DNA of 64,000 bases from Octopus vulgaris (Eukaryota), in NCBI GenBank assembly GCA_951406725.2, contig OX597843.1:13144001-13208000 (forward strand), in the 5' to 3' direction. Position numbers and translations under genes: made by a program. The notes under the pieces were generated by a model that made no database searches, had not been told where the DNA came from, and saw only the letters and a list, made by a program, of their open reading frames with translations. Positions 19,731-46,392 of the stretch are shown one piece after another. Within the stretch, counting starts at the first letter, position 1, and each line of letters begins with the position of its first letter.

Positions 19731-19871
19731 GCATGAAGTAAATAGACACCTTTAATTTAAAAAATTTCTGATCTAAGAGTCTTGATATGTTTTCAGTGGT
19801 GTAGAATTTACAAAGTAATTATTCTTATTCATTCCAGGTGCCATTATATTAAACATTTGCAAAGAGTAACC

Positions 19872-21059
19872 ATGCCATGCACAAAAAATTCAGCAGAACT
19901 GTCAGATTTTCAAAGAGGTCGTATTGTTGGGCAATCTGAGGCTGGTCTTAGCCAGTGAAAAATTGCTGAAAATCTTCAAATTCCTCTTGCTACTGTTAAT
20001 AGAATTATAGTGCAATTCAAAAGCCAAGGAAAAGAATCAACAGATTCTCGTCCCAGTCAACCTGGGCCCTCGGAAAAGAAGCTTTGCTGCTTGAAGAGAA
20101 CTGTGGAAAACGAACCCCGTTCGAAGGCTTCTGACATTGCAAAACAGCTAGAAGTTAGTCCAAGAACGTGTGTTACATATCTGCATAAACTTGGGTATTA
20201 TGGACGAGCAGCTAGAAGTAGACCCCTCCTTCAACCAATTAATATCATGAAAAGAAAGAAATGGGCTGAGGAGATGCCAGAAAAATCCAGTTCATTTTGG
20301 GATAGAGTAATTTTCTCAGATGAATCCAGATTTCTATTATTTTCAGACAGTGGATGTGTTTGGGTCTGGAGGCTTCCCAATCAAGAATTTGATTTGAAAC
20401 GGCTCCAACCAACCGTGAAACATGGCGGAATATTTGTAATATTAAGGTGGCAAGCTGGCAGAAACATTAGCATGGTGGACGAAATGCTTAGCCGTATTTC
20501 GTCTGCCGTTACGTTCTGAGTTCAAATTGCGCCGAGGTCGACTTTGCCTTTCATCCTTTCAGGGTCGATAAATTAAGTACCAGTTATGCACTGGGGTCGA
20601 CGTAATCAACTTAATACCTTTGTCTGTCCTTGTTTGTCCCCTCTATGTTTAGCCCCTTGTGGGTAATAAAGAAATAGGTATTTCAATTGCCGTTACGTTC
20701 TGAGTTCAAATTCTGCCGAGGTCAACTTTGCCTTTCATCCTTTCGGGGTCGATAACTTAAGTACCAGTTACGCACTGGGGTCGACGTAATCGACTTAATA
20801 CCTTTGTCTGTCCTTGTTTGTCCCCTCTATGTTTAGCCCCTTGTGGGTAATAAAGAAATAGGTATATTTGTAATGGAATGGGGAGCTGTCACCAGCAATG
20901 GTGACAGCTCTCCTTACCATAACAAATATAATGTTGTTCTGAGATGATGTTGGAACCATAAACTCTGAAAAATACATCAAAATACTTAAGCAAGGACTAC
21001 TTCTGATGTGTTCACATGATAACATAACGAAAAATGAGTTTTCATTCCTGGAAGATGGG
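19872..21059 (+). pseudogene. Tc1-family transposase pseudogene interrupted by a SINE; possible C-terminal remnant near 23921-23965
   Basis: ELSDFQRGRIVG HTH start, [19 protein letters not shown], resumes as WGAVT..GTINSEKYIKIL; in-frame stop near 19956. Confidence 0.85.
20441..20863 (+). mobile_element. SINE family B with duplicated body and 11-bp target-site duplication
   Basis: TSD ATATTTGTAAT at 20430-20440 and 20864-20874. Confidence 0.85.
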
Positions 21060-21349
21060 TAGATGGATTTGGTAGACGGAAACTGAAAGAAGCCTGTCAT
21101 ATATATATATATATATATATAATTAATCAATATAGGGTGGCAAAAAAAATTTTGTAGAATTCTTTTGCCACCAGCGGCCTAGTAGGAAAAAATTAAAATA
21201 GTCATAGACCATTTTTAAGTTCAACATCAACAATAAAGGAACGGCCATAATAGGCCATTCACCCACTAGAAATAACAGCCAAAGCTTCAACCGCAAATAA
21301 AAGTTAATTCAGTAAACCAGGAGAAAATTTAAAAAACATTTACCCTGTA

Positions 21350-21456
21350 ATTTCTTATACGATATACCGTTTCATCTGCTGATTAATGGTAAACTAACCT
21401 GATTAAATTAAATCAAGCCAATCTTCCACAGGCCCTCAGATTCTTCAGTAAGAAAT
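21350..21456 (-). ncRNA. Type I hammerhead ribozyme (inverted copy)
   Basis: Reverse complement of 21907-22013. Confidence 0.85.
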
Positions 21457-21906
21457 AGCCCAAGACGGAACAGATATTTTCACGAGGCATTTCCGACGTT
21501 GCCAAGTTTATATCTGACCTAAAATTTTCAAATCGTCGCAAATTTTCTCCTGGTTTACTGAATTAACTTTTATTTGCGGTTGAAGCTTTGGCTGTTATTT
21601 CTAGTGGGTGAATGGCCTATTATGGCCGTTCCTTTATTGTTGATGTTGAACTTAAAAATGGTCTATGACTATTTTAATTTTTTCCTACTAGGCCGCTGGT
21701 GGCAAAAGAATTCTACAAAATTTTTTTTGCCACCCTATATTGATTAATTATGAATTTTCTGGTTAATTCCGTAATGGAATCGACGGCTTATATTTATTTG
21801 CTGCCGATAAATTTGGCGCGAGTGCGACGATTTGAAAATTTTAGGTCAGATATAAACTTGGCAACGTCGGAAATGCCTCGTGAAAATATCTGTTCCGTCT
21901 TGGGCT

Positions 21907-22013
21907 ATTTCTTACTGAAGAATCTGAGGGCCTGTGGAAGATTGGCTTGATTTAATTTAATCAGGTTAGTTTACCATTAATCAGCAGATGAAACGGTATA
22001 TCGTATAAGAAAT
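21907..22013 (+). ncRNA. Type I hammerhead ribozyme, copy 1
   Basis: ATTTCTTA-CTGAAGA-ATCTG..CAGAT-GAAA-CGG(TATA)TCG-TA-TAAGAAAT; predicted cleavage after GUA at 22005. Confidence 0.87.
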
Positions 22014-22398
22014 TACAGGGTAAATGTTTTTAAATTTTCTCCTGGTTTACTGAATTAACTTTTATTTGCGGTTGAAGCTTTGGCTGTTATTTCTAGTGGG
22101 TGAATGGCCTATTATGGCCGTTCCTTTATTGTTGATGTTGAACTTAAAAATGGTCTATGACTATTTTAATTTTTTCCTACTAGGCCGCTGGTGGCAAAAG
22201 AATTCTACAAAATTTTTTTTGCCACCCTATATTGATTAATTATGAATTTTCTGGTTAATTCCGTAATGGAATCGACGGCTTATATTTATTTGCTGCCGAT
22301 AAATTTGGCGCGAGTGCGACGATTTGAAAATTTTAGGTCAGATATAAACTTGGCAACGTCGGAAATGCCTCGTGAAAATATCTGTTCCGTCTTGGGCT

Positions 22399-22505
22399 AT
22401 TTCTTACTGAAGAATCTGAGGGCCTGTGGAAGATTGGCTTGATTTAATTTAATCAGGTTAGTTTACCATTAATCAGCAGATGAAACGGTATATCGTATAA
22501 GAAAT
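22399..22505 (+). ncRNA. Type I hammerhead ribozyme, copy 2
   Basis: Identical to copy 1; predicted cleavage after 22497. Confidence 0.87.
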
Positions 22506-22891
22506 TACAGGGTAAATGTTTTTTAAATTTTCTCCTGGTTTACTGAATTAACTTTTATTTGCGGTTGAAGCTTTGGCTGTTATTTCTAGTGGGTGAATGG
22601 CCTATTATGGCCGTTCCTTTATTGTTGATGTTGAACTTAAAAATGGTCTATGACTATTTTAATTTTTTCCTACTAGGCCGCTGGTGGCAAAAGAATTCTA
22701 CAAAATTTTTTTTGCCACCCTATATTGATTAATTATGAATTTTCTGGTTAATTCCGTAATGGAATCGACGGCTTATATTTATTTGCTGCCGATAAATTTG
22801 GCGCGAGTGCGACGATTTGAAAATTTTAGGTCAGATATAAACTTGGCAACGTCGGAAATGCCTCGTGAAAATATCTGTTCCGTCTTGGGCT

Positions 22892-22998
22892 ATTTCTTAC
22901 TGAAGAATCTGAGGGCCTGTGGAAGATTGGCTTGATTTAATTTAATCAGGTTAGTTTACCATTAATCAGCAGATGAAACGGTATATCGTATAAGAAAT
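22892..22998 (+). ncRNA. Type I hammerhead ribozyme, copy 3
   Basis: Identical to copy 1; predicted cleavage after 22990. Confidence 0.87.
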
Positions 22999-23141
22999 TA
23001 CAGGGTAAATGTTTTTTAAATTTTCTCCTGGTTTACTGAATTAACTTTTATTTGCGGTTGAAGCTTTGGCTGTTATTTCTAGTGGGTGAATGGCCTATTA
23101 TGGCCGTTCCTTTATTGTTGATATATATATATATATATATA

Positions 23142-23675
23142 AGCGCAGGAGTGGCTGTGTGGTAAGTAGCTTGCTAACCAGCCACATGGTTCCAGGTTCA
23201 GTCCCACTGCGTGGCATCTTGGGCAAGTGTCTTCTGCTATAGCCCCGGGCCAACCAATACCTTGTGAGTGGATTTGGTAGACGGAAACTGAAAGAAGCCT
23301 GTCATATATATATATATATAAGCGCAGGAGTGGCTGTGTGGTAAGTAGCTTGCTAACAAGCCACATGGTTCCGGGTTCAGTCCCACTGCGTGGCATCTTC
23401 GGCAAGTGTCTTCTGCTATAGCCCCGGGCCGACCAATGCCTTGTGAGTGGATTTGGTAGACAGAAAGTGAAAGAAGCCTGTTGTATATATGTATATATAT
23501 ATATAGGCGCAGGAGTGGCTGTGTGGTAAGTAGCTTGCTAACCAACCACATGGTTCCGGGTTCAATCCACTGCGTGGCATCTTGGGCAAGTATCTTCTGC
23601 TATAGGCCCGAGCCGACCAATGCCTTGTGAGTGGATTTGGTAGACGGAAACTGAAAGAAGCCTGTCGTATATATG

Positions 23676-23706
<31 letters not shown>

Positions 23707-45004: not shown

Positions 45005-45349
45005 AGAGACCACTATGTGGTCCCTAGAGCTCTCAGAAATACCAGCCAAATCTTCTTCAAATCACACCTTACTGTCTTATCTATGAGCCAATAAGGGAGA
45101 CCTCTACATGGTAGCTAGACCTGGCAGAAATAGCAGCCAAATCTCCCTCAAATCACATCCTACTCTCTTATGTATGCATGAGCCAATGAGGGAGACCTCT
45201 ACATGGTAGCTAGTCCAGGCAGAAATAGCAGCCAAATCTCCCTCAAATCACACCCTACTCTCTTATGTATGTATGAGCCAATGAGGGAGACCTCTACATA
45301 GTAGAGATAGCAGCCATATCTCCCTCAAATCACACCCTACTGTCTTATG

Positions 45350-45395
<46 letters not shown>

Positions 45396-45478
45396 GACCA
45401 ATGAGGGAGACCTCTACTTGGTAGCTAGACCTGGCAGAAATAGCAGCCAAACCTACCTCAAATCACACCATACTGTCT

Positions 45479-45514
<36 letters not shown>

Positions 45515-45915
45515 TATGTATGGACCAATGAGGGAGACCTCTACATGGTAGCTAGACCTGGTAGAAATAGCAGCCAAACCTACCTCAAATCACACCATAC
45601 TGTCTTATATATATATATGTATGGACCAATGAGGGAGACCTCTACTTGGTAGCTAGACCTGGCAGAAATAGCAGCCAAATCTCCCTCAAATCACACCCTA
45701 CAGACTTATGTATGTATGAGCCAATGAGGGAGACCTCAACATAGTAGCTAGACATGGTAGAGATAGCAGCCAAATCTCCCTCAAATCACACCAGTCTGTC
45801 TTATTTATGCATATATGTATATATGAGCCAATGAGGGAGACCCCTATTTGGTAGCTAGACCTGGAAGAAATAGCAGCCAAATCTCCTTCAAATCACACCC
45901 TACTGTCTTATGTAT
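45005..45915. repeat. Minisatellite, about 100-bp unit with variable (TA)n spacer
   Basis: Recurring CCAATGAGGGAGACCTCTACATGGTAGCTAGACCTGGCAGAAATAGCAGCCAAATCTCCCTCAAATCACACC. Confidence 0.85.
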
Positions 45916-46392
45916 GACATCACCACCATCAAGAATACCACCACCACCACCACCACCACCTCCACAGCTACCAATACTATGCATTTAGTCATAAACCCAC
46001 CGCCACCACCCCATCTACACCCTCTAACGTAGACAAGGGGTCTGCCAGTCTATGTAATGCTACATCTTGGTGTCCCCTATCGCACGCCCTTCTTCTTCCC
46101 CCCCCCTCCCCCGCGAGCATTCCCCACCTCGCCTCCCGACCCCTCTGCAGCTCTCGTTACTGAGATCGATCAAATAGGGATATAGATTTGAGTAAAATGA
46201 TATCATCAATGATTGAATGTTGGCGCACAGATGCACACGCATGCAAGTGTATGCATATGCACAAATGTGCATATATATATATATACTCACATACATGCAC
46301 ACACATACGCATACACACGTACATGTACTCATGCACACAGTCTCTCTCTCTCTCTCTCTTTTCTCTTTTGTATCTCTCTTTTTCTATGTATA

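Follow-up and report, generated by a model that had tools for sequence, protein, structure and literature searches.

Non-LTR retrozymes are known in animals as short, AT-rich and non-coding units that stand in tandem, each with a type I hammerhead ribozyme, and are dispersed as multimers, with circular RNAs proposed as intermediates and PLEs (Penelope-like elements) as their origin (PMC7229834; bioRxiv 10.64898/2026.07.22.740005). According to the available sections of the latter account, monomers range from 51 to 972 bp, the tie to PLEs consists of distribution and terminal likeness, and the support for mobilisation in animals is co-occurrence and sequence likeness; eight of nine predicted Xenopus retrozymes gave no cleavage in vitro (bioRxiv 10.64898/2026.07.22.740005). 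PLEs themselves are described with an inverted, 5'-truncated copy, a tail of 30-40 nt that is often found at one end only, and (TA)n targeting (PMC8557442, PMC3846280). Purified Poseidon protein cleaves and extends both strands, with internal starts at two sites bounding the tail, and the enzyme has been modelled as a dimer for which the hammerhead was dispensable in vitro (PMC11167929). How inverted, tailed PLE insertions originate is stated as unresolved in the available parts of two of these studies (PMC8557442, PMC11167929).

The DNA analysed here, called the window, is a stretch of 64,000 nt from Octopus vulgaris (contig OX597843.1). In it, an inverted arm of 422 nt (21119..21540, minus strand; locus L069) is joined head-to-head to a forward array of 3.2 units (21540..23122, plus strand; 492, 493, 493 and 105 nt), as a first-pass annotation made from the sequence had noticed. 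When the 493-nt unit is numbered with position 1 at window position 22032, the inverted arm is 100% complementary over its 422 nt, or 0.86 unit, to unit 284-493 plus 1-212. The arms meet at 21540, where TCGTCGCA passes into AATTTTCTCC and both share one A, a 1-nt microhomology. We call the outer end of the inverted arm the distal site D and that of the array, at unit 105, the proximal site P; the P arm is 1584 nt and the D arm 422 nt. Both outer ends merge into TA repeats where the unit itself reads AT or ATA, in line with the first-pass annotation: the left end runs into (AT)11A (21099..21121), the last 3 nt of which, ATA, are common to the D end, and the right end runs into (AT)10 (23121..23140), the first 2 nt of which, AT, are common to the P end.

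The insertion target is a spacer in a tandem of a 179-nt repeat which we take to be SINE-like. A 3' fragment of this repeat (family D13 in our repeat comparison) precedes the left tract at 21060..21098 (plus strand), and the tandem with its (TA)n spacers continues at 23141..23689 (plus strand). In the next spacer, 23295-23325, the same two flanks are linked by (AT)8 without an insert; there are 11 and 10 TA repeats around the insertion against 8 in this neighbour, a target-site duplication is unreadable inside (TA)n, and no allele lacking the insert was found. Upstream, window 19840-21060 holds broken transposase frames, presumably of the Tc1/mariner type judging from their translation, split by a 184-nt tandem (20504-20865) and by the SINE-like array into which the retrozyme is inserted. 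The head-to-head junction of the window locus is known from the assembly alone, as no bridging contig was found among the matches listed in four public runs. Four runs compared over the locus gave short repeat contigs only, and in two of the four compared over the junction contigs stop there, with the normal continuation of the unit; both comparisons are silent on absence, strand or expression, and the presence of the unit in two runs guessed to be RNA does not imply expression.

Copies were searched for in the whole genome (2.8 Gb, 227 contigs) and compared in four sets: the 39 best-scoring loci, including the window locus and one duplicated pair; 33 further loci, the first ones listed on contigs C1 and C2; 20 D-anchored loci; and 40 P-anchored loci. 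Inversions and TA flanks were found again at more than 100 loci, as the first-pass annotation had expected. The observed inversion is not a product of chance, since the architecture recurs genome-wide with differing inner junctions. L043 and L044, about 63 kb apart on C11, show the same insertion with the same flanks twice and are a local or an assembly duplicate.

The unit has 35% GC and a longest stop-to-stop frame of 68 aa; it is without an RT (reverse transcriptase) or GIY-YIG ORF, and such ORFs are present elsewhere in the genome. A descriptor search placed a type I hammerhead at unit 368-474 with a predicted cut after 466, and matched 0 of 1000 shuffled units, which bears out the hammerhead first noticed in the inverted arm. 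In the array the motif lies at 21907..22013, 22399..22505 and 22892..22998 (plus strand, units 1 to 3; cuts predicted by the descriptor after 22005, 22497 and 22990), and in the inverted arm, as mapped from the unit alignment, at 21350..21456 (minus strand; cut predicted between 21358 and 21357). Its parts are an 8-bp stem I, a CUGAAGA core, a 5-bp stem II with a 58-nt insert, GAAA, a 12-nt self-complementary stem III and GUA, and the fold is 1.7 kcal/mol above that of minimum energy. Stem III alone barely folds, and with a second copy it pairs 12/12 (-13.6 kcal/mol), a pattern expected for dimeric hammerheads according to the available text of an earlier study (PMC4209133). About 228-254 copies, which as relatives do not give independent counts, have an almost unchanged core, the exception being N7, a position free to vary (198 A, 21 T, 7 G, 2 C). 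In older subfamilies and in sister family B (64% identical) the fold is kept, with stems that are changed yet paired and with 12/12 self-complementarity, and covariation of the ribozyme was found in three related groups. Searches of the window, the locus and a copy from an older subfamily against Rfam gave no hammerhead, likely due to the long stem II insert.

The predicted cut site is free of scars in 295/295 copies. A 28-mer of the unit has 795 exact matches in the genome (control, 0), and arms reach 9.4 units in dispersed copies. Tandem units with a predicted type I hammerhead, a short AT-rich non-coding monomer within the published size range, and dispersed multimers are all present, and because the type I hammerhead shows covariation across sister families we assign the unit to the non-LTR retrozymes, with hundreds of young copies in this genome.

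The outer ends of the copies fall at unit 103-107 (P) or 201-213 (D). P (unit 105) and D (unit 205-212) are about 107 nt apart, and the 107-nt 'tail' between them (unit 106-212; window 22137..22243, plus strand) lies within a structure conserved with covariation in sister families. D opposite P was called at 52 of 72 loci and P+P or D+D at none (p=4e-16 against 50:50), the remaining 20 being single-armed, non-TA or unclassified. The same picture came from a census that took in every exact P end on C1 and C2, 64 in total: 54 lie opposite D (three of these very short), none opposite P, and 10 are single or unresolved. Among the D-anchored loci, judged by eye, 13/20 are inverted, all with an end in the P region (101-110), and 7/20 are single-armed. 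An apparent P+P locus on C4 was rejected, since its outermost ends are D and P and the other P junctions are internal copies. In the compound locus L273:897-5723 (G000:C4:46281396-46286222) each arm has an internal P end followed by 26 nt of its own right flank, as if the site had been re-transcribed and then re-inserted.

On the forward strand genome-wide, P joined to TA has 412 matches and D joined to TA 563 (the reverse-strand count for D, 1154, includes overlapping matches); the surplus of D goes back, at the 20 loci inspected, to single-arm copies and to older subfamilies that lack the exact P pattern. A control site that matches TA over 5 nt has 0 junctions with (TA)n genome-wide, and of the 93 AT/TA positions in the unit only those in two narrow windows serve as ends. 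Microhomology sets only the last 1-7 nt inside the P and D windows; in older subfamilies P is at 101 or 110 and its fine position follows the AT register. The first-pass annotation had proposed that both ends of a break in the TA tract primed reverse transcription by microhomology. The (TA)n targeting and the priming from both sides of the target stand, but microhomology as the chooser of the ends does not.

The rule extends to relatives. In sister family B, 10/10 distinct loci with both ends called (from 30 rows) are P+D; one exception was seen by eye, a copy of a third, diverged sister family in L058 that is D-like at both ends. Five families have similar folds in the P-D region, where 14/41 pairs show two-sided changes, a count from few sequences. 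About 40 nt upstream of P, at unit 52-65, lies the motif GGCTGYTATTTCT, which is common to many otherwise different TA-associated repeats (window 45006-45916; L077, L096, L116, L119, L192, L208, L209) and is possibly a common RT-binding signal.

The two arms of a locus carry the same haplotype. In 55 two-armed loci they differ at 24/14,922 shared sites (0.16%), compared with 1.08% for shuffled arms (minimum 0.81% in 1000 shuffles), and seven private variants, at six loci, are present in both arms. Many haplotypes are active and the arms of one locus almost never mix them. Of the rare variants, 22 are fixed in all or all-but-one of the copies covering them at a locus and four recur in only some of the array units. 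The first-pass annotation had also suggested that read-through transcripts would form long dsRNA, a possible ADAR or small-RNA substrate. Such a transcript from the flank could pair over up to 422 bp, but transcription of the arms themselves would diverge and give RNA of a single sense; the rare variants showed no excess of A>G (13 vs 9 T>C, p=0.13), i.e. no ADAR signature, and the suggestion gained nothing from these data.

Arm length is linked to the predicted cut. In the census, the ends of first-pass arms fall within unit 463-493 in 20/55 P arms and 16/38 D arms at risk, compared with a background per 31 nt elsewhere of 4.9% (P) and 4.3% (D); about 39% of arms hence stop just 3' of the predicted cut where about 5% would be background, in a 31-nt window picked after inspection of the P-anchored loci. 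An earlier set, for which the ribozyme 28-mer was required and which is biased to arms crossing the site, gave 13/116 vs 8 expected (p=0.057), an excess that is not significant. On later passes of the cut only 4/44 ends in the census fall there (Fisher p=2.6e-4 vs the first pass), and at later cut sites in the pooled set 15/162 do (9.3% vs 4.0% background, p=0.002). The arms of one locus tend to behave alike: among 51 loci at the first cut, both arms are short in 23, both cross in 19, and 9 are discordant (p=3.5e-6), the window locus being of the crossing kind. We read this as templates that were mostly cut linear monomers, with some linear multimers and with circles or uncut transcripts. Not all long arms can come from monomeric circles, because of the excess at later cuts and the four variants found in only some units. 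A possible alternative to run-off at the ribozyme would be a promoter at the same place as the predicted cut.

Inserts are present at 11 of 45 simple inner junctions; of the 34 without them, 24 have at least 2 nt of microhomology (18% by chance). Repeated T/A blocks that correspond to unit 486-4 of the template occur at 8/64 census junctions, with a length of about 240 nt in L261; in L261, L247, L263 and L264 the blocks lie between the arms and match the template just 3' of the predicted cut. This suggests realignment of the cDNA end near the 5' end of the RNA, reminiscent of telomerase, and alternatively the blocks may be polymerase fill-in between two cDNA ends. Clustering of inner ends near two hairpins was weak (p about 0.03, uncorrected) and was dropped. 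Other junctions are more singular: in L265 a different repeat family switches into the unit at a common TATTTCT motif, and at two separate loci (L032:4090-4122 and L033:4812-4842) nearly the same inverted piece of 31-33 nt (unit 61 to 29-31) lies between the arms.

An inverted, 5'-truncated copy, a tail at one end and a (TA)n target are features of non-autonomous PLEs, and the Penelope-like character seen in the first-pass annotation is borne out; the same features also occur in RT/GIY-YIG elements of this genome. Two young families of such elements encode proteins of 781 and 775 aa (47% identical); they too target (TA)n, and their tails measure 40 and 33 nt. The one-of-each pairing of ends recurs in their inverted copies L105 and L107 (the ends of L102 lie between the sites) and in 4/4 inverted PLE loci among further matches. 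Three TA-targeting PLE families were seen (L100-L116, L189-L200, L201-L212); the 781-aa and 775-aa families each have an upstream ORF, the 775-aa family has, by eye, a minimal hammerhead-like motif with a CCGAAGA core, and the third family, older and more distant, has a hammerhead-like motif and a tail of about 53 nt. The first-pass annotation had looked to autonomous PLEs sharing hammerhead-bearing termini with the unit; none with common terminal sequence was found among 50 GIY-YIG-selected and 24 further PLE loci, the scoring having covered 150 of 6136 GIY-YIG candidates. Partner candidates from blastn, nhmmer and a five-family profile run over the GIY-YIG and PLE loci matched only where separate retrozyme insertions lie, and an old PLE beside a family-B arm in L185 was set aside as target rather than partner (87-92% to its relatives).

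One locus joins the two kinds of element. At L183:1180-3700 (G000:C13:22938680-22941200), duplicated as L184, a family-B arm with a P end is head-to-head with a 5'-truncated arm of the 775-aa PLE family with a D end, between (TA)n tracts and with no TA between the arms. No second chimera of this kind was seen among the 27 distinct family-B loci, and the 112 loci (72+40) of family A, the unit's own, showed no junction with a PLE arm.

Taken together, our results make it probable that the window locus is one insertion of a non-coding hammerhead retroelement, produced in trans by a dimer of a PLE RT/GIY-YIG protein that made one cDNA at each site from the same RNA. Self-cleavage, expression and circles in cells are predictions of the model, and the Penelope-like enzyme is inferred. 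Self-cleavage of tandem transcripts, probably by hammerheads acting as dimers, would yield linear monomers along with circles and some linear multimers. A dimeric Penelope-like enzyme would cut both strands of a (TA)n tract and bind the structured P-D region, so that each 3' end of the target primes at one of the two sites, with 1-3 nt of AT pairing fixing the exact start base. If the RNA has been cleaved, synthesis of both cDNAs would end by run-off close to the cut, so that the arms would not exceed about 132 and 239 nt and would sometimes carry slippage repeats; with a circle or an uncut multimer as template, synthesis would continue past the cut and yield multi-unit arms such as those in the window. 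The two cDNA 3' ends would finally be joined by microhomology or short inserts and filled in. Against this reading stand the lack of shared termini in the PLE loci sampled, a tail of 107 nt where 30-40 nt is printed, the exception in L058, the excess of ends at later cuts, the earlier set of arms without a significant excess, the Xenopus retrozymes that gave no cleavage, and the chimera in L183, which points to two RNAs.

The latter is the core of the nearest rival, in which the same dimer uses the same two sites but each subunit carries its own RNA and the arms agree by descent from one source locus. The joining of a family-B arm at P to a PLE arm at D would follow directly from this, short arms that copy the same stretch of RNA twice are easily accommodated, and so are the nine discordant loci among 51. 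It would however have to explain why a single chimera is found in the 27 family-B loci and none in the 112 of family A, why arms almost never mix haplotypes when many are active, and why they stop at or pass the cut together, and we consider it unlikely. Single priming followed by fold-back self-priming, with the inverted arm copied from the first and the tail formed at resolution, has been modelled for PLEs (PMC3846280, PMC8557442). A few palindromic junctions (L055, L123, L137, L241, L244) and some variants mirrored across the junction (L048) are what it predicts. Inner ends lie within 15 nt of each other in only 5/45 simple junctions, though (2.8 expected), and either arm may be the longer one, which is impossible if one arm is copied from the other; because of these two findings fold-back is not the main route, as which the arm lengths largely exclude it, and as an explanation of this locus we hold it to be very improbable.

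That a chance break in the TA tract was patched by any reverse transcriptase at any AT or ATA of an RNA would fit the 1-3 nt which both ends have in common with the tract, and the shift of P to 101 or 110 with the AT register in older subfamilies. The use of two narrow windows out of 93 positions, the strict pairing and the 5-nt match that was used 0 times, where P was used 412 times, make it hard to credit at all. Hardest to uphold is an artefact of assembly or of long-read fold-back, or a satellite rearrangement at the DNA level: a bridging contig is indeed missing among the matches listed for the four runs, but at more than 100 loci the inner junctions vary and are mostly non-palindromic, the outer ends are fixed and asymmetric, and the inner ends track the ribozyme site. 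The first-pass annotation had also named twin priming. In LINE-1 twin priming one of the two ends corresponds to the poly(A) tail and the other lies at an internal site that varies, and there is mostly no overlap between the arms. Both target ends prime there as well, 3' ends face outward and junctions show microhomology; in the octopus copies, however, neither start varies, both are internal and the two arms cover overlapping parts of the template, so that twin priming of the L1 type does not describe them.

The octopus unit is close to two known kinds of element. It resembles metazoan non-LTR retrozymes in that its tandem units are short, AT-rich and non-coding and each carry a type I hammerhead, in its dispersed multimers and in the proposed circular intermediate and PLE origin (PMC7229834; bioRxiv 10.64898/2026.07.22.740005), and differs in the 58-nt insert of stem II and the 12-nt self-complementary stem III. 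Insertion ends, inverted arms and target were analysed for the octopus unit, no such analysis being found in the available parts of those accounts, and its end junctions are direct evidence of the PLE route. With EN+ PLEs (pLTR and tail) it has in common the inverted, 5'-truncated head-to-head copy, the tail at one end, an AT-rich or (TA)n target, a hammerhead upstream of the ends and two RT start sites bounding the tail (PMC8557442, PMC3846280, PMC11167929, in the parts available). Unlike these, the octopus unit is without an ORF, its tail is 107 nt rather than 30-40 and is strictly paired one of each, which is more than optional. The predicted cut is also recorded in its arm lengths; in the available descriptions of an anole element, cleavage could be dispensed with in vitro and did not show in RNA-seq. 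In the literature searched, which leaves most subscription work including that on early Penelope outside, we found no strict one-of-each pairing, no run-off at a ribozyme cut and no octopus retrozyme. The element and its inversion are of known kinds; what exceeds the descriptions found is how strictly the ends are asymmetric, how long the tail is and how arm length is tied to the ribozyme.

A young 493-nt family with hundreds of near-identical insertions makes the rules sharp: of two starts each arm uses a different one, both arms share a template, and stops fall at the predicted cut. These rules constrain the mechanism of insertion, lend themselves to tests in which a small RNA is combined with intact PLE proteins from this genome, and would give the hammerhead a role in vivo that was unseen in the single in vitro study. 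We give about even chances to the more general view that PLE integration is an asymmetric double priming, with each subunit of the dimer bound to a different start site on one RNA and the hammerhead deciding between a cut linear and a circular template. If so, every two-armed insertion would have exactly one tailed and one untailed end, cut RNA would give short arms with telomerase-like slippage at the 5' end, and circles would give multi-unit rolling arms. The family would then be a natural record of the whole cycle, and direct junction evidence that PLE enzymes integrate the retrozyme circles of animals.
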